Assembly (NCBI GenBank): GCA_947447375.1
Contig: CANFJB010000007.1
Span: forward strand, 48,280 to 112,279
Length of the DNA stretch: 64,000 bases
Reading direction: 5' to 3'
Source of the DNA: Bacteroidota bacterium
GTDB taxonomy: Bacteria > Bacteroidota > Bacteroidia > Flavobacteriales > Flavobacteriaceae
Of the stretch, positions 24,172 through 33,562 are shown piece by piece. Position 1 is the stretch's first letter, and every line of letters begins with the position of its first letter. Under the pieces are notes generated by a model. That model was not told where the DNA came from and did no database searches. It saw only the letters and a list, made by a program, of their open reading frames with translations. Position numbers and translations under genes: made by a program.

Positions 24172-24199
24172 AAAAAAAGCTCCAATTGGAGCTTTTTTT
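24172..24199. terminator. Bidirectional terminator closing the ECF/MbnP/YHYH operon
   Basis: Perfect 28-bp palindrome AAAAAAAGCTCCAATTGGAGCTTTTTTT between convergent genes. Confidence 0.9.
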
Positions 24200-25577
24200 A
24201 TTTTTTAAGAATTACTTTATATGTTTTGACATTATCTTCAGAAGCTATTTTTAAAAAATAAATTCCATTATAAATGGTATCTGTTTCAAAATAACAAATT
24301 GTACTTCCTTGGAAAAATTCTTTAGAGGCAATTATTCTTCCTTGTTCATCAACCAAATCAGCTTTTAAGTTTTCTGAAATCATTTCACTTGATTGAATAA
24401 TTATCAGTTCACCAGCTGGGTTGGGGTAGATTTTGAAATTCAATTTATCAAAATTAAAATTGGTATTTCCCATCACCGGATTATAAGTCAAAACCGTTTC
24501 TGTTATTGGGGTAACTGTTGGTGCATTCATATTTGTAGCCGATTTAACTCCATAATAATAAGGCCCTACAACATAGGGATAAACAGAATTATAATTTTGA
24601 TCTACAGTAGTAAAATAGCAATAAGTACCATTGGGATATTGTGGTGTTTTGCAAAAACGACCATTGTGAACATCTAAATATTCACTTCCAGTATTTGCTA
24701 CGTACTCATAATCTTCTCGATACCATCCTATTGGAAATGAAGTGTTTACTGGCGGACCATCAACAACATCTGTTCCGTCAGCGTAAACATTTCTTGTAGT
24801 AATATTTCGCTCTCTATAACTTGATTTCATTCTTGTAATTCCACTATTAACATCTAACGGATTGGTATATCCATACGGACCATAAATTGGATACCCATCA
24901 TATGCAAATCCTAATAATGGAGAGTGGACAGTAGGATTTATTACATACAAACCATCAGAAGCATATGGTGAACAAACAGTAGAAAGTACTACCAAATCCA
25001 TATTAAATGCAGAAGGATTTTGATGATGATGATAACGACTTTGTGCATCTGGATGTCCTTTTGAACAATCAAATCCAACACGTTCTGCTAATACTCCATT
25101 TCTATTCCAAATCCCATCACCTCCACCTGTGTTCGGAGCATCAGAAGCTGTTGAAGCTTTGTAAGAAAACCCATCGCCATAACTGTAAAGAGCAACGCCA
25201 TTAATAAATACACCAATATTTGCTGCACCTGTTGCTTGCGAAGGAACATTTCCTAATGTACTTACAACTGGGTTTAAAGGAAATTTAAATAGTGCGTTTT
25301 GAACTCCAGCAACCGTTCTGGGATTATTATAAAATGGACCAGTTACAAATGAAGGAATCCCTTGGGTACTTATGTATGCAGAAGTGGTGGAATATTGCAC
25401 TGTTTGAACATTTGCAGGAATTGCTGAATCTATCAAAATAGTGGAACTACCCGATAAATAGTGTCTTCCTGTAATACCTGTATTGTTTATTAACCACGAA
25501 GTAATTATAGGATTGGTTTGTGCAAAAGAATTTATTACAAACAAATATAATAAAAGAAAAGAGAAAATATTTTTCAT
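24198..25577 (-). CDS. YHYH-domain protein with T9SS type A sorting domain (paralog 2)
   Basis: Signal peptide; FDCSKGHPDAQSRYHHHQNP, GFAYDGYPIYGP, LDVHNGRF; CTD IYPNP...GIYFLKI...KVILKK. Confidence 0.85.
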   Translation of the reverse strand: MKNIFSFLLLYLFVINSFAQTNPIITSWLINNTGITGRHYLSGSSTILIDSAIPANVQTVQYSTTSAYISTQGIPSFVTGPFYNNPRTVAGVQNALFKFPLNPVVSTLGNVPSQATGAANIGVFINGVALYSYGDGFSYKASTASDAPNTGGGDGIWNRNGVLAERVGFDCSKGHPDAQSRYHHHQNPSAFNMDLVVLSTVCSPYASDGLYVINPTVHSPLLGFAYDGYPIYGPYGYTNPLDVNSGITRMKSSYRERNITTRNVYADGTDVVDGPPVNTSFPIGWYREDYEYVANTGSEYLDVHNGRFCKTPQYPNGTYCYFTTVDQNYNSVYPYVVGPYYYGVKSATNMNAPTVTPITETVLTYNPVMGNTNFNFDKLNFKIYPNPAGELIIIQSSEMISENLKADLVDEQGRIIASKEFFQGSTICYFETDTIYNGIYFLKIASEDNVKTYKVILKK

Positions 25578-25580
25578 AGT

Positions 25581-26930
25581 TTATTTATCAATGATTACTT
25601 TAAAAGTCTTTGATTCTTTATCATTAGAAATTTTCAAGAAATACAATCCATTGTAAATAGTAGCTATTTCAATTATACTCAATGTACTACCTTGCAGGAT
25701 TTGACTTGTTTTAACCACTTTTCCTAATTCATCAATTAATTCTACTTTCAAATTACTTTCAAGCATTTGAGATTGAATAGCAATAAAATCTTGGGCTGGG
25801 TTAGGAGCTATAGTTATATTGAAACTAGAATCGTTAAAATTGGTTGTTCCCAGAGTAGTAACAGCTTCAGTTATTGAGGTTACTTTTAAAGCTGTTTTAT
25901 TTCCATAAAATGTTGGTCCCACAACATAAGGATAAGCTGAATTATGATTGGCATCAACAGTAGCAAAATAACAGTAAATTCCATTAGGATATTCCGGAGT
26001 TATACAAAAACGTCCATTGTGTTCATCTAAATAACTTGGATCTGTAGGATGTGAAATAAATTCGTAGTCTTCTCTAAAATATCCAAGTGGATAAGTTGAA
26101 CTCACAGCAGGTCCATCCAAAACGTCTGTTCCATCAGCCCAAACGGTTCTGGTAGTTATATTTCTATATTGGTAACCTGATTTCATTCTAACTATTCCTC
26201 CAGTTCCATTAGTATTTGCATAAGCATAAGCACCGTAAATAGGAAAACCGTCATAGGCAAATCCTATTAAAGGAGAATGTTCACTTGGATTGATAACATA
26301 CAATCCATCTGAAGGATAGGTTGAACATACAGTAGAAATAACATTGATATCTAATCCAAAAGCGCTTGGATTTTGATGGTGATGGTAATTACCCATTGCA
26401 GGATGAGCTTTAGCACAGTCAAAACCTATTCGTTCCCCCACAACAGCATCTCTATTCCATTTCCCATCTCCTGTACAAGGCGGATTTATTGGGCCTCCAC
26501 AAAGCGAACTTGATGCATTTCGCCATGACACACCATCTCGATAATCAAATAATGCAACACCATTTTTAAATAATCCAATATTACCACCAGTAGTTGCTGT
26601 TGCTGTTCCTGTATTTTGAGTTGGATTTAATGGAAATTTAAATATTGCTCCAGCTTGTGTAGTTGCAAGTGATGGATTTCCATCCAAAAATGGTCCTGTA
26701 ATATAAGCTGGAATCCCATTTGTGGTAACATAAACCCAATTCGCAGAATATTGAACTGTTTGCACATTTGCTAAAACCGCATCAACAATTGGAGTTGAAT
26801 TTCCAGAAACATAATGTCTTCCAGTAATTCCAGTTGTGTTTTGCAACCATTTAGTAATTATAGGGTTGGTTTGCCCTAATAGTGTGCATCCAAATAATAA
26901 CATCCCAAAAAGAGTAATTTTTTGTTTCAT
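25581..26930 (-). CDS. YHYH-domain protein with T9SS type A sorting domain (paralog 1)
   Basis: Signal peptide; FDCAKAHPAMGNYHHHQNP, GFAYDGFPIYG, LDEHNGRF; CTD APNP...GLYFLKI...KVIIDK. Confidence 0.85.
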   Translation of the reverse strand: MKQKITLFGMLLFGCTLLGQTNPIITKWLQNTTGITGRHYVSGNSTPIVDAVLANVQTVQYSANWVYVTTNGIPAYITGPFLDGNPSLATTQAGAIFKFPLNPTQNTGTATATTGGNIGLFKNGVALFDYRDGVSWRNASSSLCGGPINPPCTGDGKWNRDAVVGERIGFDCAKAHPAMGNYHHHQNPSAFGLDINVISTVCSTYPSDGLYVINPSEHSPLIGFAYDGFPIYGAYAYANTNGTGGIVRMKSGYQYRNITTRTVWADGTDVLDGPAVSSTYPLGYFREDYEFISHPTDPSYLDEHNGRFCITPEYPNGIYCYFATVDANHNSAYPYVVGPTFYGNKTALKVTSITEAVTTLGTTNFNDSSFNITIAPNPAQDFIAIQSQMLESNLKVELIDELGKVVKTSQILQGSTLSIIEIATIYNGLYFLKISNDKESKTFKVIIDK

Positions 26931-26950
26931 AATTTGATGGTATATTTTAT

Positions 26951-27574
26951 TTATTTCATTTTGTCGATAATTCCTCTATAAAAAATCCGGCAACCAAATG
27001 GCTCTGAATTTTTTATAAAAACCTCATTACCTTTTAATAATTGATCAACAGCATTAGTTAAAAAATGATTTTTCACATTTTGATAATCTCCCGCATTATC
27101 ATCTATAGAACCTTCATATTTGACAATATATTTATTGTTTTGTTTCCAAATAACGAAAGCTTGTGGAGTAACAGAAGCTTTGAAATTCTTTCCAACCACT
27201 TGCTTTTTATCTTGTAAATAAGGAAAATTCAATTTATCAGTTTTAACTTTATTTTGCATTTTTTTAAATGATTCTTCAGCATAAGCCAAAGTATCCATTG
27301 AATTAATTGCAATTAAAGGAATACCTACAGTTTTATATTTATCACTCATTTGATTCAAACGCTGAGAATAAAATTTTGCCATTGGGCATTTATTACACGT
27401 AAATATAATAATAAAACCTTTAGCGTTTTTATAATCAGACAAAGAAACCCAATGATTTGTTTTGGCGCATTTTAATTTGAAATCAGAAACCTGTTTTTCC
27501 TTTACAATTAAATTAAAACTGCAAAGAACAAAAAGAATACTGATAAATAATAATTGGAAAAATTGCTTTTTCAT
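26951..27574 (-). CDS. Exported redoxin (AhpC/TSA-like thioredoxin fold)
   Basis: Signal peptide; IFTCNKCP (CxxC); FPYLQD, ASVTPQAF, YEGSIDD, GCRI. Confidence 0.85.
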   Translation of the reverse strand: MKKQFFQLLFISILFVLCSFNLIVKEKQVSDFKLKCAKTNHWVSLSDYKNAKGFIIIFTCNKCPMAKFYSQRLNQMSDKYKTVGIPLIAINSMDTLAYAEESFKKMQNKVKTDKLNFPYLQDKKQVVGKNFKASVTPQAFVIWKQNNKYIVKYEGSIDDNAGDYQNVKNHFLTNAVDQLLKGNEVFIKNSEPFGCRIFYRGIIDKMK

Positions 27575-27576
27575 AG

Positions 27577-29292
27577 TTATTTTTTGATAAACTTTCTTGT
27601 AGTAAGGCTTTTCGTTTGTTTATCCATCATTTGAAAGGTATAAACTCCTGATTCTAATGAAGAAATATCGATTCCGTTTTGCCATTCTGGTTGTGGTAAC
27701 ATCATTACAACTCTTCCTGTAATTGTTGAAATAGTTACATAATAGATCTCAGTATTGTCATCTTTTAAATTAACATATAAAAGGTTACTTGATGGATTTG
27801 GATACAAACTAAAACTAGTATTTGTTTCACTTTGATTAGTTCCTAAAGCACCTGAAACAATAAATTGTCCCATCATACCACCATCTTCATGACCACCAAA
27901 ATGGCAGTGGTACATATAGGGATGGGTTACATCGGAATCAGCGAAATCGTCAAATTTTGCAACGAAAGTTACAGACTCATTTCTTGGTAAATAAAAGGTG
28001 TCTTTCCAGCCACTTTCGTGTGAACCAACGGCAGTAGCAATTCCATTTCTTGCCACTATTTTAAACTCAACATCATGTAAATGAAATGAATGTCCAAATA
28101 CAGCGTTATTAGTTACAGTCCATTTTTCGATATCATTTAAATTAACTACTTTAGGAGTCATCGTCAATGAATAGGTGACATTATCAAAATTAAAAGGAAC
28201 ACTTGCAGGACCTGGATTTCCATTTGTTACAGCTATAGCTCTTGTAACAGTAGCATCTGCTGCTGTCCAATAAGTATTTGATATCAAAGTTGAAGGAAGA
28301 GCTGTTATTGGAGTTGTTGCTGTGGTAGTTGCGGCAACATTTATATGTAATACATTAAAATCTATATTATTTAATAAACTTCCAAAATCACCAGATGTAT
28401 TAGGTTCACCACCAGGGAAACCTAATGTTTGTCCTGAATTATACGCTTTTAAATCTATACTACTACCAACAGTGTCTCCGCCTAAATTCACCATTATTTC
28501 TATTCTCTCACCAACTAATAATTTTACTCTGGTTACAGCAACTGGTGCATTTAATAGGCCTCCATCATTACCAATAATGTAAAAAGTTCGATTATCACTA
28601 AATCCTAAATTATAGGCTCTTTCAATTTCAGCATTTAAAATTCTCATCCTTACATATTGTTTTGGTAAACTAATTTGTGCATTTGGTGTTCCATTAGACA
28701 ACATATAATCTCCATATACACGTGTAGTACTAACAAAAGTATTAGTAGTAGGTGTATAACTTCTACTGGTTAATGCTAAAACAATATCATCAACTCCATA
28801 AGTTCTTGGCAATGCCAATGCCGCTTCTTGAGGGTCTTTAACAATTATAAATCCTCCAATACCTTTAGTCATTTGCGCTTGAGTAGTAGTATGCAAATGA
28901 GGATGATACCATAAAGTAGTGGCTTGGTTTTTTACTGTCCAATACGGTTGCCAAAGAGTTCCAGCAGGTATAACTTGATGTGGACCTCCATCCATTACTG
29001 CAGGCAAATGCATTCCATGCCAGTGAACAGTTGTAGATTCATTTAAATTGTTGGTTACATTCATATGAACCAAATCACCTTTATTAATAAATAATGTTGG
29101 CCCCCAAAAAGTCTCATTATTGATCGAACCTGTAATAGTTTGATTTCCTGTAACTAATTGTTTAGTAGATTCATGAATATTCAAATTGAAAGTAGTTCCA
29201 TACAACGCTTCAGGCATTGTCATATTTGAATATTGAGCATTTATTACTGTAGATGTTAATGCTATAATTGAGGCTAGAATTATTTTTTTCAT
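27577..29292 (-). CDS. Multicopper oxidase with T9SS type A sorting domain
   Basis: All four Cu motifs present: HWHG, WYHPH, HSFHLH, HCHFGGHEDGGM (T1 ligands H-C-H-M); CTD LYPNP...GVYTFQM...RKFIKK. Confidence 0.93.
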   Translation of the reverse strand: MKKIILASIIALTSTVINAQYSNMTMPEALYGTTFNLNIHESTKQLVTGNQTITGSINNETFWGPTLFINKGDLVHMNVTNNLNESTTVHWHGMHLPAVMDGGPHQVIPAGTLWQPYWTVKNQATTLWYHPHLHTTTQAQMTKGIGGFIIVKDPQEAALALPRTYGVDDIVLALTSRSYTPTTNTFVSTTRVYGDYMLSNGTPNAQISLPKQYVRMRILNAEIERAYNLGFSDNRTFYIIGNDGGLLNAPVAVTRVKLLVGERIEIMVNLGGDTVGSSIDLKAYNSGQTLGFPGGEPNTSGDFGSLLNNIDFNVLHINVAATTTATTPITALPSTLISNTYWTAADATVTRAIAVTNGNPGPASVPFNFDNVTYSLTMTPKVVNLNDIEKWTVTNNAVFGHSFHLHDVEFKIVARNGIATAVGSHESGWKDTFYLPRNESVTFVAKFDDFADSDVTHPYMYHCHFGGHEDGGMMGQFIVSGALGTNQSETNTSFSLYPNPSSNLLYVNLKDDNTEIYYVTISTITGRVVMMLPQPEWQNGIDISSLESGVYTFQMMDKQTKSLTTRKFIKK

Positions 29293-29308: not shown

Positions 29309-29340
29309 TTATTTAGACGAATTTATTATCAAATTCTTGC
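29309..29340 (-). promoter_or_regulatory. Putative ECF sigma promoter upstream of the multicopper oxidase
   Basis: Minus strand GCAAG-AATTTGATAATAAATT(16)-CGTCTAAATAA; same elements and spacing as 32055-32086. Confidence 0.75.
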
Positions 29341-29354
29341 ATTTTTTTTATAAT

Positions 29355-30374
29355 TTATCTTGGATAGGAAAAGCGTTTATCAAATAAAAATTCAGTATCA
29401 GTCAAAGTTAATAAGAAAGCAACTAAATCAACTCGTTGATTATCAGTTAAATTCATTGGCTTTTGAAGCTGTTTTGGTAGGTTTTTATTATTTCCAAGTG
29501 AATTGTAATGCTTGATAACTTCTGTTAGTTTTTTAAATCTACCATCGTGCATATAGGGATTTGTAAATTGGATATTTCGCAACGTAGGAACTTTAAATTT
29601 AAGATAATCTTCTGATTTTTCAGTAATTCTTTGTCTTCCAATATCGTTTAAAGTAGTATCTAACGGAATGCCATTATTTTCATATTTTCCATTTGTAAAT
29701 AAGGGTTCTGTATGACAAGAAGCACAATTATTTTTAAACAATTGATATCCATTTTGCTCTTGATTAGTGAAAACGGCTTCTTTCCGCATTACTTTATCGT
29801 ATTTTGAATTGGCGCTTATCAATAGTAATTCAAACTGAGAGAGAGCTTTTAAAACCCGCTGGCCTGTAATATTTTCATCTCCAAAGGCAGCGAAGAATAA
29901 CGATTTGTATTTGTCGCTTTTTTGAAGTTTATTAACCACATTAGCCAAAGTTTCATTCATTTCTACCGGACTTGTAATAGGATTTAAGGGCTGTACATCT
30001 AAATGATTCACTCCGCCATCCCACATAAAAGTTTTTGACCAAGCTAAATTCATCATTGTCATTGAATTTCTTGTTCCTATTTTACCATCTATTCCATGAC
30101 TTAAAGAATGATCAACATGGGTAAATCCGGTTGCTTGCAAATGACAGCTTGCACAAGATATTGTCGAATCTTTCGATAAAATCGGATCGTAAAATAATTG
30201 TCTCCCCAATTGAAATCCTTCTTCTGTAAGTGGATTTTTAGAAAAATCATAATTGGGTTTTTGCCAACCTTTTGGAATTTGAAAATATAGAGGAGTAGGA
30301 TTTAATAATGAAAATGCAAGCGAAAAAAACAATACGCTAACTATTAATATACTATAGGTGTATTTAGTTTTCAT
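29355..30374 (-). CDS. Di-heme cytochrome c peroxidase family (MbnH/MauG-like)
   Basis: Two CxxCH (SCASCH, NCASCH), LGRQLFYDPILS, WDG, FKVPTLRN, YMHDGRF; likely start ATG 30374 (MKTKY). Confidence 0.9.
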   Translation of the reverse strand: MKTKYTYSILIVSVLFFSLAFSLLNPTPLYFQIPKGWQKPNYDFSKNPLTEEGFQLGRQLFYDPILSKDSTISCASCHLQATGFTHVDHSLSHGIDGKIGTRNSMTMMNLAWSKTFMWDGGVNHLDVQPLNPITSPVEMNETLANVVNKLQKSDKYKSLFFAAFGDENITGQRVLKALSQFELLLISANSKYDKVMRKEAVFTNQEQNGYQLFKNNCASCHTEPLFTNGKYENNGIPLDTTLNDIGRQRITEKSEDYLKFKVPTLRNIQFTNPYMHDGRFKKLTEVIKHYNSLGNNKNLPKQLQKPMNLTDNQRVDLVAFLLTLTDTEFLFDKRFSYPR

Positions 30375-31074
30375 TTGGCAAAAATTCTGAAATTGAGAAC
30401 ATTGATTTGGCTTTATCTGCAAGATCCATGGCTTTTGATCCTGGAATCATAATACTATTTGTTTCAGATAATTTAATTTGATTGAATAATCGAGAAAGAT
30501 CAACATTTATTTCAAAATTTGAAATTCTAGGTTCTAATTCAATTGTTCTAATTGCATAATATGGTTTTAAATAACCGCCAACGTGAAATTGAAATGCATT
30601 ATTTCTTGTTTTGCAACTTGAACTTTTTCCCTCAATTTTAAAGTTGATGTAACCGCTTTGCCATGCCCAATACATTCCTTTGGTTGGATCTAAATCGCCA
30701 GATAATGCTCCTGAAACACTTGAAGTACTGTCTATTCCAACAGAAAAAACAACTTTTTTAATTTCTAAATTCGATTTTTTAGGTAAGTAAATTAGTTGAG
30801 AATTGGGTTCTTCTAAATCTATTAGGTGATAGCTATTATCTTCTGATATTACTGAATTATCTTTTAGAATCAGTTTAATATTTGATACATAAAACCGAAA
30901 AGATTCAATTTGCAAAGTGTCTTTTGTTGACGAAATGTATTTTTTATTTTGAATAAGCGATTCGTTTTCATATTTAATAGTAAATCGCAATGGAAAATTA
31001 TCTTTTTTTTCTTGTGAATAAATCAAATGAAAAAAAAGAGTGAAAACAAAAACATATTGTAATTTACTTCTCAT
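30364..31074 (-). CDS. mbnP: MbnP family copper-binding protein
   Basis: Signal peptide; FRFYVSNI, GDLDPTKGMYWAWQSGYINFKIEG (WxW motif), FHVGGY; overlaps the MbnH-like peroxidase gene. Confidence 0.8.
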   Translation of the reverse strand: MRSKLQYVFVFTLFFHLIYSQEKKDNFPLRFTIKYENESLIQNKKYISSTKDTLQIESFRFYVSNIKLILKDNSVISEDNSYHLIDLEEPNSQLIYLPKKSNLEIKKVVFSVGIDSTSSVSGALSGDLDPTKGMYWAWQSGYINFKIEGKSSSCKTRNNAFQFHVGGYLKPYYAIRTIELEPRISNFEINVDLSRLFNQIKLSETNSIMIPGSKAMDLADKAKSMFSISEFLPNEN

Positions 31075-31783
31075 CTAAATCTCTTGGTGGAGGTGGAGGA
31101 CGATTTTCATCACCAGGTCTTCCCGGTCTATCTTCACCCAAGTGAGGTGGCGGAGGTCTATTTCCCTCTCTCGGTCCTCGTGGATGATCTCCATCTCTAG
31201 GCGGTGGTGGAGGTCGGCGCTCATCCATAGGTGGAGGAGGCGGAGGAGTAAAATTTGATCCGTCCTTATTTTCTTTATTGTTATTATCAAAATCAGGTCT
31301 TGGAGGATGTCTAAATTCAGTACGAGGTCTTCGGTTTTGATTTGAAAATAATTTTTCTAATTCCTCTGTTAATGAATTATAAGCTTCAAGTTGTGATTTA
31401 GTACATAGGATTTTAATATCTTGGAAATGCTTGAAATTAGCTTCTTCAATTCTTTTTTGGTTTACCAATGTCAATTGGATTAAACTATCTTTAGCTTTAT
31501 TATTTACAATTGGCTGTTTCAATTGTGTGTATAAAACGGCTTTTATTTCTCTGCTATTATTATTTAATGAATCTATTGTATTTCTATATACCTTAATAAT
31601 ATCCTCATATTTCTGAATTTGGTTGGCATCAAAATGCAACTTTTCAATGATAATATCTTTGGGCTTTTTGCCTAAATCATGAGGGTAGTCATTTGGTCTT
31701 GATATATATAGAAAACCAATTATTCCTATATTTAATAGTACAAGCCCGATAACTGAATAGGTTAATAATTTTATCTTATCCAT
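31064..31783 (-). CDS. Membrane-anchored periplasmic helical protein (Spy/CpxP or CnrX-like) with Pro/Arg/Asp-rich tail
   Basis: N-terminal TM, IIEKLHFDANQ...HFQDIK.LCT..Q helical domain, about 90-aa PPPPP-rich C-terminus. Confidence 0.7.
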   Translation of the reverse strand: MDKIKLLTYSVIGLVLLNIGIIGFLYISRPNDYPHDLGKKPKDIIIEKLHFDANQIQKYEDIIKVYRNTIDSLNNNSREIKAVLYTQLKQPIVNNKAKDSLIQLTLVNQKRIEEANFKHFQDIKILCTKSQLEAYNSLTEELEKLFSNQNRRPRTEFRHPPRPDFDNNNKENKDGSNFTPPPPPPMDERRPPPPPRDGDHPRGPREGNRPPPPHLGEDRPGRPGDENRPPPPPRDLDEK

Positions 31784-31785
31784 TT

Positions 31786-32052
31786 TTAGTACAATTGATT
31801 CGTATTTGAAATAGTTGAAATAACTGTTTCTGTTTGCGTATTAGTTTTAGCTAAATTTGATTTTAATAAATTAATATTAATTGAAATTAAAAGAGCAAAA
31901 GTAGCTGCAGCAACAAAAATCCATTTATTTGAAACTTTATTTTCTAAATTGATTTTGTTTTGAATTTTATCGAAAAGCAATTTATTCGGAAGAACTTTAA
32001 CCATTCCGTTGGTGCTTTCCATTATTTCGAGGGTCCAATTTTCAGCTTTCAT
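31786..32052 (-). CDS. Small single-TM putative anti-sigma factor
   Basis: 88 aa; cytoplasmic N-terminus, one TM (WIFVAAATFALLISINI); directly downstream of the ECF sigma. Confidence 0.65.
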   Translation of the reverse strand: MKAENWTLEIMESTNGMVKVLPNKLLFDKIQNKINLENKVSNKWIFVAAATFALLISININLLKSNLAKTNTQTETVISTISNTNQLY

Positions 32053-32054
32053 AA

Positions 32055-32086
32055 TTATTTAGACGAATATTAATTTTTATTCTTGC
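32055..32086 (-). promoter_or_regulatory. Putative ECF sigma promoter upstream of the anti-sigma gene (overlaps the sigma 3' end)
   Basis: Minus strand GCAAG-AATAAAAATTAATATT(16)-CGTCTAAATAA; same elements and spacing as 29309-29340. Confidence 0.75.
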
Positions 32087-32621
32087 GATATTCTTCAAAT
32101 TTGTTTGAAATTTTTTCTTTTAGGGTTGTTTTTGCTCTAAAAACTAAGGATTCTACAGATGAAATACTCAAATTCATAATTTCAGCAATTTCAGGATTAC
32201 TCAATCCATCGACTTTTGAAAGCAGAAAAGCTGTTTTTTGATTTTCACCTAATTGATTGATAATTTCAAAAAGTACTTTTGCTTTTTCTTTGTTCTCCAA
32301 TAAAACTCCGGGATGTTCAAAATTGGATACATTTAAAATCTCTAATTCATTTTGACTTTTTTTACCGAAAATAAAAAATCTTTTTTGGCTGTTTTTATGT
32401 TTGATAAAATCAAGGCATTTGTTGATTGTGATTCGGTAAATCCATGTTTTTAGTGATGATTTTTCTTGAAACGTACTCAATGAATTATTTATTTGAATGA
32501 ATACGTCTTGAGTAATTTCTTCAGCATCTTCAACGTTTTGCAGATAATTGAGCGCTAAATTATAAACCAATACACTGTATTGATTGTATAATTTTTCGAA
32601 GTCTCTATTATCTAATGCCAT
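32070..32621 (-). CDS. ECF RNA polymerase sigma factor
   Basis: DAEEITQDVF, SSLKTWIYRITINKCLD (region 2); LSNPEIAEIMNLSISSVESLVFRAK (region 4). Confidence 0.95.
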   Translation of the reverse strand: MALDNRDFEKLYNQYSVLVYNLALNYLQNVEDAEEITQDVFIQINNSLSTFQEKSSLKTWIYRITINKCLDFIKHKNSQKRFFIFGKKSQNELEILNVSNFEHPGVLLENKEKAKVLFEIINQLGENQKTAFLLSKVDGLSNPEIAEIMNLSISSVESLVFRAKTTLKEKISNKFEEYRKNKN

Positions 32622-32712: not shown

Positions 32713-32726
32713 AACGAAATATTTTT

Positions 32727-32794
32727 TAGCCCTGATGGAAGGGAAAATCCCTCGCTTTTTTGCGAGGATTGGAATGACAGCAGGAAATAGCTTC
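32727..32794 (-). repeat. 68-bp structured intergenic repeat (REP/MITE-like), copy 2
   Basis: Reverse complement GAAGCTATTTCCTGCT...TCCTCGC-AAAAAA-GCGAGGGA...ATCAGGGCTA; homologous to 13769-13836. Confidence 0.8.
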
Positions 32795-32815: not shown

Positions 32816-33562
32816 ATGAAATTATTACAAGGAAAAACTGCCATTATCACAGGTGCTAGCCGTGGAATTGGTAAAGGAATTGCGGAGATTTTCGCTAAAA
32901 ACGGTGCAAATATAGCTTTCACTTATAGTTCGTCTGTAGAATCGGCATTGGCTTTGGAAAAAGAACTTAATGAAATGGGCGTGAAAGCAAAAGGATATCA
33001 ATCGGATGCTTCCGATTTTAATGAAGCCCAAGCTTTTGTAGATGCAGTTTTAGAAGATTTTGAAACTGTTGATGTGTTGATAAATAATGCGGGAATTACT
33101 AAAGATAACCTTTTGATGCGTATGACTGAGGAAGATTTTGACAAAGTAATCGATGTTAATTTAAAGTCGGTTTTTAATATGACTAAGGCGATTCAAAAAA
33201 CATTTTTGAAACAACGTTCAGGTTCAATTATAAACATGAGTAGTGTTGTTGGAGTTAAAGGAAACGCTGGCCAAACCAATTATTCAGCTTCAAAAGCGGG
33301 TGTTATTGGATTTTCAAAATCGGTTGCACTAGAGTTAGGATCACGAAATATTCGTTGTAATGTTATCGCTCCTGGTTTTATTGAAACTGAAATGACAGCG
33401 AAATTAAATGAAGATGTAGTTAAGGGTTGGAGAGACGGAATTCCTTTGAAACGTGGCGGTTCTACTGAAGATGTTGCGAATGCTTGTTTGTTTTTTGCAT
33501 CAGATATGAGCTCATTTGTAACGGGGCAAGTATTGAATGTTTGTGGCGGAATGCTAACTTAA
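32816..33562 (+). CDS. fabG: 3-oxoacyl-ACP reductase FabG
   Basis: ITGASRGIG, NNAGITKDNL, SSVVG, YSASK, NVIAPGFIET. Confidence 0.96.
   Translation: MKLLQGKTAIITGASRGIGKGIAEIFAKNGANIAFTYSSSVESALALEKELNEMGVKAKGYQSDASDFNEAQAFVDAVLEDFETVDVLINNAGITKDNLLMRMTEEDFDKVIDVNLKSVFNMTKAIQKTFLKQRSGSIINMSSVVGVKGNAGQTNYSASKAGVIGFSKSVALELGSRNIRCNVIAPGFIETEMTAKLNEDVVKGWRDGIPLKRGGSTEDVANACLFFASDMSSFVTGQVLNVCGGMLT

Follow-up and report, generated by a model that had tools for sequence, protein, structure and literature searches.

The closest described counterparts of the system analyzed here, an operon headed by an extracytoplasmic function (ECF) sigma factor gene in a 64-kb stretch of low-GC DNA from a freshwater Flavobacterium-like organism (contig CANFJB010000007.1, the whole stretch being referred to as the window), are CnrYXH of Cupriavidus metallidurans and sigH-rshA of Corynebacterium glutamicum. 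In CnrYXH, a system of the ECF20/ECF291 type, a cytoplasmic CnrY peptide of 45 residues holds the sigma factor, the sensor CnrX serves as dock for the periplasmic end of CnrY, and ECF promoters precede both the regulatory genes (cnrYp) and the effectors (cnrCp) (PMC6851896). In C. glutamicum, the neighboring sigma and anti-sigma genes are co-transcribed from housekeeping promoters upstream of the sigma gene, and an additional SigH-type promoter, shown experimentally and with a start 62-66 nucleotides (nt) upstream, drives rshA alone; rapid shut-off without positive feedback was the proposed outcome (PMC3489674). The operon in the window comprises nine genes arranged head to tail on the minus strand (32621-24198) and contains two copies of a bipartite element, site 1 at the 3' end of the sigma gene and site 2 upstream of a multicopper oxidase gene. 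We consider it very probable, from a comparison of sequences across the Bacteroidota, that the ECF sigma factor encoded at 32621-32070 uses both elements as promoters.

The likeness to CnrYXH lies in the combination of an ECF sigma factor, a small single-pass membrane protein as the presumed anti-sigma factor and a membrane-anchored periplasmic protein as the presumed metal sensor, and in the presence of two promoters. An analogy to CnrH had been drawn in the initial annotation of this DNA, and it goes further than first claimed: the third gene is of the Metal_resist/Spy/CnrX type, a label that it shares through its homologues, and the second gene product, a protein of 88 amino acids (aa), has a CnrY-like architecture. 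In sequence, the 88-aa protein has no detectable similarity to CnrY. The two systems also differ in gene order, Y-X-H with an autoregulating CnrH in one case and sigma gene first in the other, and in their targets, an efflux pump of the resistance-nodulation-division type in cnr but MbnP, MbnH, an oxidase, a redoxin and YHYH proteins exported through type IX secretion (T9SS) in the window. Among solved structures the sigma factor is closer to RpoE (1e-19) and SigW than to CnrH (6e-14). By analogy, the module may thus work like CnrYXH without being a member of that group. With sigH-rshA it has in common that a promoter of the sigma factor's own type drives the anti-sigma gene and not the sigma gene, in our case as an in silico prediction for 67 of 80 loci. 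There, the anti-sigma factor is a cytoplasmic redox-sensing protein and the regulon counts 83 genes; here, the anti-sigma candidate is a small membrane protein, the final codons of the sigma gene contain the -35 element, with a 6-nt gap to the following ATG, and the internal transcript would also carry the genes for the sensor and for MbnP and MbnH. In groups ECF281 and ECF290, as described in the accessible part of their classification (PMC7826278), the sigma gene is likewise followed by an anti-sigma gene at position +1 and a PF13801 'heavy-metal resistance protein' at +2, but the anti-sigma factors are of the zinc-finger or RskA-like type; that part of the source gives no description of a promoter motif or of an internal promoter position. 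Finally, as in the MbnP/MbnH pairs of methanotrophs, a WxW-containing MbnP-family protein adjoins a MauG-like di-haem enzyme, with the difference that no methanobactin operon is present here and that the pair is embedded in an ECF operon.

The two elements share an identical 14-mer (ATTCGTCTAAATAA) on the minus strand, at 29309-29322 and 32055-32068, with a GCAAGAAT box upstream of each copy and exactly 16 nt between GCAAG and CGTCTAA. Within the 64 kb, the pattern GCAAG-N16-CGTCTAA has exactly two occurrences, 32086-32059 and 29340-29313, both on the minus strand. Site 1 (32059-32087, minus strand) consists of the predicted -35 element CGCAAGAA at 32087-32080, a 14-nt spacer and the -10 element CGTCTAA at 32065-32059. 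Its -35 box, CGC-AAG-AAT, provides the Arg-Lys-Asn codons directly before the stop codon TAA of the sigma gene (32072-32070), the spacer spans this stop codon, and the next gene begins with an ATG at 32052, six nucleotides (ATAATT) after CGTCTAA. Site 2 (29313-29341, minus strand), with its predicted -35 element TGCAAGAA at 29341-29334, a 14-nt spacer and CGTCTAA at 29319-29313, is located within the 62-nt gap between the stop codon of the MbnH-like gene (29355) and the ATG of the multicopper oxidase gene (29292), 20 nt upstream of the latter. With a CGTC -10 box and a rigid spacer, both predicted sites have the typical geometry of ECF promoters. The initial annotation had pointed to the 14 shared bases, the exact 16-nt spacing, the -35 element encoded by the last sigma codons with 6 nt to the next ATG and the position of the second copy ahead of the oxidase-redoxin-YHYH block, and each of these features was found again when the sequence was checked; its reading of them as ECF promoters is sustained by the comparison of related loci, in which both elements are conserved at the same two junctions with ECF geometry.

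A repeated 14-mer alone is unremarkable in AT-rich DNA of this length (64 kb). The bipartite pattern in its exact form, found twice in the window, was absent from all of 100 dinucleotide shuffles, a test that was post hoc, and when two mismatches were allowed the pattern was no more frequent in the window than in shuffles. As an independent test, a weight matrix was derived exclusively from the sigma-gene ends of 58 other genomes. This matrix assigned 28.1 bits to site 1 and 21.9 bits to site 2, as compared to a best score of 17.0 bits across 20 shuffles, and on both strands of the whole window no further site reached 8 bits. Note that the 58 training sites had been chosen by a loose regular expression that did not impose the spacer length, for which reason we rely on the cross-site tests and not on the logo.

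For comparison we assembled 80 loci across the Bacteroidota with sigma factor relatives that are 94-44% identical, a family that ranges over Flavobacteriia, Chitinophagia, Cytophagia, Saprospiria and their relatives. Cultured carriers among them are Flavobacterium swingsii DSM 21789 (L005), F. lotistagni (L007), F. cheonanense JCM 17069 (L009) and Chryseobacterium taihuense (L039). In 67 of these loci the motif a-CG[C/A]A[A/G]GAA-N14-CGTC[T/A]AA marks the sigma gene's 3' end. Across 58 orthologous sites, all aligned in the same register, the G, T and C of CGTC are invariant. The peptide encoded by the motif is Tyr-Arg-Lys-Lys in Flavobacterium and Asn-Glu-Gly-Lys in the other classes, and its position relative to the stop codon varies, from wholly inside the coding sequence (L043, L053, L070) to 24-42 nt past the stop codon (L035, L045, L060, L075). 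Codon usage within the element is unusual. Flavobacterium-like genes invariably spell the Arg-Lys pair under the -35 box as CGC-AAG (25 of 25), while elsewhere in these genes CGC accounts for 26% of Arg codons and AAG for 15% of Lys codons; in the window operon the values are 4% and 9%, respectively. The invariable use of rare codons points to selection on the DNA and not on the protein. At a threshold of at least 14 bits, a matrix scan of both strands of 1.1 Mb of related loci returned 125 matches, 123 of them on the sigma strand, and 117 fell into four position classes: the sigma gene 3' end (67), a region 2.4-2.8 kb downstream of the sigma stop codon (30), the 120 nt or less upstream of the sigma start (11) and a region 0.6-1.8 kb downstream (9). 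The remainder comprised six matches elsewhere on the sigma strand and two on the opposite strand. Counted by junction, as a site of at least 14 bits no more than 200 nt upstream of a gene, the element preceded the small-protein (anti-sigma) gene in 29 of 31 loci, the first effector gene, for a YHYH protein or a multicopper oxidase, in 31 of 48 and the sigma gene in 11 of 79. No site was found by the same count upstream of the genes for the third protein (0/73), MbnP (0/41), MbnH (0/43) or the redoxin (0/7), and random control windows contained a single one (1/562).

Conservation of the order sigma, small protein, third gene, MbnP, MbnH, YHYH is widespread. In loci devoid of MbnP and MbnH, YHYH directly follows the third gene and the second site moves along with it. 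In each of the 27 loci analyzed in this respect, the gene that comes first behind the downstream site specifies a protein with a T9SS sorting domain, namely a YHYH protein in 19, a multicopper oxidase in five and a CotH plus LTD protein in three, so that YHYH is the commonest effector class after site 2 in the relatives. The CotH plus LTD proteins, which follow a site at about +2.5 kb from the sigma stop codon in L014, L028 and L029, have 753-754 aa and a T9SS tail. Behind the sites at +0.8-1.0 kb, the next gene is one for a short YHYH protein in 7/7 cases. An exact-pattern scan of metagenome contigs produced at least 122 matches. Among the matches listed, 103 were unlinked to the system, and 76 of these are situated inside long open frames, many in high-GC contigs, and are thus attributed to chance. 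The 19 linked matches listed, together with an extra one (L132) before a short YHYH-like protein, were in contexts already known, either at the sigma gene end or upstream of YHYH, oxidase, MbnP or sigma genes, and no new target class appeared among the metagenome matches listed.

The junction counts raise the question of whether the sigma factor also induces its own gene. The initial annotation had stated that no such motif lies upstream of the sigma gene. This is correct for the window, where neither pattern nor matrix scans detected a site and nothing in that region reaches 8 bits, but it does not hold for the family, as copies are found 24-73 nt upstream of the sigma start in 11 of 79 relatives (L021, L028, L029, L036, L039, L040, L056, L057, L058, L063, L077). 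All three sites are present in L021 and in L040, an uncultured Chryseobacterium MAG whose third copy precedes YHYH, and L028 and L029 have the upstream copy and no strong copy at the sigma end. Promoter placement, and hence the predicted feedback topology, varies within the family, and a third copy upstream of the sigma gene would add positive feedback. The family can thus autoregulate, and we found no promoter that drives the sigma gene of the window, so that this gene, too, might be positively autoregulated through a divergent or weak upstream copy or by some other route, with the internal promoters being real nonetheless but the feedback no longer purely negative. We regard this as unlikely, if worth serious attention. 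Apart from the two sites, nothing in the window attains 8 bits, the best scores ahead of the sigma gene have a median of -8.2 bits over the loci, which equals the background, and L001 and L002, two close relatives, have in common with the window an upstream region free of the motif. Note that these two loci, at 95% identity, are too similar to the window for footprinting.

A second question concerns the identity of the sigma factor that reads the sites. Bacteroidota carry some 22 ECF sigma factors per genome, and in Flavobacterium psychrophilum a generic CGT-type motif could not be tied to a single one of them, so that the sites might be genuine ECF promoters under cross-regulation by another ECF sigma factor of the genome. 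Against this stands the covariation of the -35 box with the sigma factor encoded next to it. The -35 box has two main forms, and within a locus they pair as GAAGG with GAAGG in 19 cases and as GCAAG with GCAAG in 17, and mixed pairs do not occur among them. A region 4.2 helix of the type S154-S155-VESL-x-F161-RAK accompanies GCAAG, and K-A (or G-A)-VESL-x-Q/S/H-RAK accompanies GAAGG. As four distant sigma factors (L031, L048, L055 and L060, 48-57% identical to the window protein) also combine an SS/PS..F helix with a GCAAG-type box, this link is not just a marker of the Flavobacterium clade. The -35 box thus appears to match the specificity of region 4 of the cognate sigma factor, in a relation that is correlative and partly phylogenetic. 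Finally, as 11 relatives carry the motif upstream of this very sigma gene, in the classical autoregulatory position, it can be assigned to the neighboring sigma factor. A motif that travels with one sigma gene across the phylum, and whose -35 variant switches with residues 154, 155 and 161 of that sigma factor in distant branches as well, renders cross-regulation decidedly improbable. The proposal of the initial annotation that the sigma factor induces its own inhibitor and sensor together with the effectors gains credibility from this comparative evidence.

Being located at gene junctions within an operon, and crossed by apparent read-through contigs, the elements might alternatively be binding sites for a DNA-binding regulator or signals at the RNA level, for processing or translational coupling, and not promoters at all. 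We consider this very improbable in view of the bipartite conservation with a spacer of variable sequence but fixed length and a CGTC -10 box, the strict strand bias (123/125) and the covariation with the DNA-recognition helix of a sigma factor; moreover, some genomes carry the element upstream of the first gene of the unit, and no Rfam family matches at the elements. A chance likeness of two AT-rich stretches, for which the expected recurrence of 14-mers and the unexceptional frequency of the pattern with two mismatches might be cited, has next to no likelihood after the shuffle and matrix tests, the locus-wide positions, the junction counts and the CGC-AAG codons, and was in fact already refuted by the conservation.

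If both sites are read as ECF promoters by the neighboring sigma factor, the position of the transcription starts can be predicted. In the SigH promoters of Mycobacterium tuberculosis the -35 element GGAAYA extends from -34 to -29 and the -10 core consists of G-11, T-10 and T-9. Setting the G of CGTC at -11 therefore places +1 at the sixth nucleotide after CGTCTAA. For site 1 the predicted start is 32053, one nucleotide before the ATG (32052), and with a slack of a single nucleotide it would coincide with the A of this ATG. For site 2 the start is predicted at about 29307, corresponding to a 5' untranslated region of about 14-15 nt up to the oxidase ATG at 29292. In 27 Flavobacterium-like loci the gap between CGTCTAA and ATG amounts to 6 nt in 15 cases and to 5 nt in three more, and in the other classes it ranges from 4 to 28 nt. 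The distribution is bimodal, and a leaderless start would be expected to impose just such a sharp 6-nt peak. The anti-sigma mRNA from site 1 is thus probably leaderless or has a leader of 1 nt, and the near-leaderless mRNA that the initial annotation had postulated fits the conserved distance. Such transcripts form a minority in flavobacteria; in F. psychrophilum they make up about 5.5%.

A single transcription unit with basal expression from upstream of the sigma gene probably comprises all nine genes (32621-24198), as they are tightly packed on one strand and a pattern scan revealed no terminator-like hairpin within the operon on the minus strand. Neighboring genes overlap or are 2-3 nt apart, with the exception of three wider junctions, those between the sigma and small-protein genes (17 nt), the MbnH and oxidase genes (62 nt) and the redoxin and first YHYH genes (20 nt). 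Sites 1 and 2 thus occupy two of the only three intergenic gaps in the operon that exceed 15 nt. Among public RNA data, only lake metatranscriptomes in the form of assembled contigs contain the sequence; they document that the operon is expressed, and lake-water metagenomes contain contigs near-identical to the DNA of the window.

The arrangement suggests the following mode of action. Basal transcription from upstream of the sigma gene would supply the sigma factor together with its partners. At rest, the sigma factor would be held by the 88-aa membrane protein, in complex with the periplasmic Metal_resist-type protein, until an extracytoplasmic signal frees the sigma factor. The free sigma factor would then fire at site 1, to produce anti-sigma factor, sensor, MbnP and MbnH and, by read-through, the rest, and at site 2, to produce the secreted multicopper oxidase, the redoxin and the two YHYH proteins. 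The transcript from site 1 probably reads into the genes for the sensor, MbnP and MbnH, as a unit of four genes or longer. As both sites lie downstream of the sigma gene, induction would raise the levels of inhibitor, sensor and effectors and not that of the sigma factor, and the outcome would be negative feedback without positive autoregulation.

Several observations weigh against this interpretation, in whole or in part. The -35 box is devoid of the 'AAC' core that many ECF promoters share. Of 48 loci, 17 lack a strong site immediately ahead of the first YHYH or oxidase gene; in some of these a different gene comes first or the site scores 10-13 bits. Both the covariation and the codon counts ignore the kinship among loci. 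The gap between CGTCTAA and ATG is 41-61 nt in nine of the 27 Flavobacterium-like loci (L011, L013, L017, L019, L020, L021, L023, L025, L032), and the leaderless mRNA is therefore not universal. A basal promoter of the sigma gene, in particular one of the Bacteroidota housekeeping type, was not found upstream of it. A scan with the sigma-70 consensus, which is ill-suited to Bacteroidota promoters, returned fewer matches than shuffles did. The lake metatranscriptome contigs carry no 5'-end information, and some of them span both sites, in agreement with read-through or a carry-over of DNA. The 88-aa protein has no match in Pfam, NCBIfam or the PDB, anti-sigma domains included, and the sensor of the window itself remains below the Pfam thresholds, its assignment being made via homologues.

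The ECF sigma factor (183 aa, 32070-32621, minus strand) matches Sigma70_r2 (5.6e-17) and Sigma70_r4_2 (3.2e-15) and exceeds the cut-off of TIGR02937 (sigma70-ECF). Its NCBIfam matches are generic, with the 'GFO_1088 family' model below cut-off, and 3028 homologues were retrieved at E <= 1e-20, the named ones from Flavobacterium. The 88-aa protein (31786-32052, minus strand) was analyzed in an alignment of 40 homologues. It consists of about 40 cytoplasmic residues with the motif VEPxPxLFxRI, a single transmembrane helix and a short, conserved periplasmic tail with NQLY at its end, and in related loci its gene always directly follows the sigma gene. From this position and architecture we infer a role as anti-sigma factor. 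The presumed sensor (239 aa, 31064-31783, minus strand), a membrane-anchored periplasmic protein of the Metal_resist/Spy/CpxP type, is encoded after the small protein in nearly all loci. Of 47 homologues, 27 match PF13801 Metal_resist (best 2.8e-11) and 13 match LTXXQ, and a profile of the family retrieves Spy among the solved structures with an E value of 0.0019 and, weakly, ZraP. Within the family H119, Q55 and Q131 are invariant and H66 and C127 nearly so. Most members have about 150 aa with an N-terminal membrane anchor. The window protein has a proline-rich C-terminal extension of about 90 aa (31064-31330, minus strand) with PPPPPP and RPPPPP repeats that is shared only by the close relative L002.

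The next gene (30364-31074, minus strand) encodes a member of the MbnP family (PF20243, 8e-47) with a WAW version of the WxW motif (MYWAWQ), which in MbnP is the precursor of kynurenine and the copper site. It is followed by the gene of an MbnH/MauG-like di-haem cytochrome c peroxidase (29355-30374, minus strand; CCP_MauG, 8.7e-57), which starts with an ATG at 30374 and thereby overlaps the MbnP gene at its end. Neither protein reaches its NCBIfam equivalog cut-off, the MbnH-like one scoring 226 bits against the 363 required for TIGR04039. Downstream of site 2, profile matches identify a CueO-like multicopper oxidase with a T9SS sorting domain (27577-29292, minus strand) and a thioredoxin-fold redoxin of the AhpC/TSA, ResA-like type (26951-27574, minus strand), and the operon ends with two tandem genes for YHYH-family (PF14240) proteins (25581-26930 and 24198-25577, minus strand), each with a T9SS sorting domain. 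The WxW-containing MbnP, the MbnH-like enzyme and the CueO-like oxidase link the operon to copper, and the signal would most likely be copper or a copper-linked redox state. The YHYH proteins are rich in invariant His, Cys and Tyr residues, as in HPAMGNYHHHQNP and GIYCYF. We found no functional literature on this family. Searches of solved structures with the YHYH, sensor and 88-aa sequences gave nothing significant, the match of the sensor profile to Spy being the only one, and an AlphaFold2 model of the YHYH domain, computed from 32 sequences with 76-94% identity plus the paralogue, was unusable with a mean predicted local distance difference test score (pLDDT) of 36.

The principle of the circuit is already known, but the Bacteroidota system described here is uncharacterised and phylum-wide, and the searchable literature contained no experimental work on this sigma family. 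Specific to it are the -35 element in the last codons of the sigma gene, the probably leaderless anti-sigma mRNA and the conserved YHYH output. We tentatively suggest, while leaning slightly to the side of doubt, that these features define an unrecognised phylum-wide unit in which an ECF sigma factor, a CnrY-like mini anti-sigma factor and a CnrX/Spy-like sensor with a His/His/Cys signature would control a T9SS-secreted YHYH output, frequently accompanied by MbnP/MbnH and an oxidase, for extracellular copper handling, with the main promoter in the 3' end of the sigma gene and a leaderless anti-sigma mRNA. Motif discovery that takes autoregulation for granted would overlook the group, since the predicted main promoter is situated downstream of the sigma coding sequence. 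The present data yield a promoter consensus that can be tested and predict a compact regulon for this sigma family, and they tie YHYH (PF14240), a family without known function, to a module of the metal-sensor type and to copper proteins. If the assignment is true, a family in which the third copy varies is a natural experiment in feedback topology, with matched natural variants, with or without the upstream copy and with a 6-nt or 41-61-nt leader, for the study of feedback design and of leaderless translation in Bacteroidota.

Two further observations concern the RNA of the locus and its surroundings. The ends of metatranscriptome contigs were considered as candidate 5' ends and rejected, as they coincide with strain variation and gene junctions. 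One contig (run X27) joins position 26874 to 29237 and skips 2362 nt with the oxidase and redoxin genes, which suggests a co-occurring strain in which a YHYH gene immediately follows site 2, as it does in most related loci. Between the sigma gene and a divergently oriented short-chain dehydrogenase gene (32816-33562, plus strand), a full-length Flavo-1 RNA motif (Rfam RF01705) was detected at 32724-32791 on the plus strand, with 49.6 bits against a gathering threshold of 42 and an E value of 1.6e-08. It is the single copy in the window and is located on the strand of the dehydrogenase gene, 25 nt 5' of its ATG, and its hairpin appears as terminator-like in the pattern scan.

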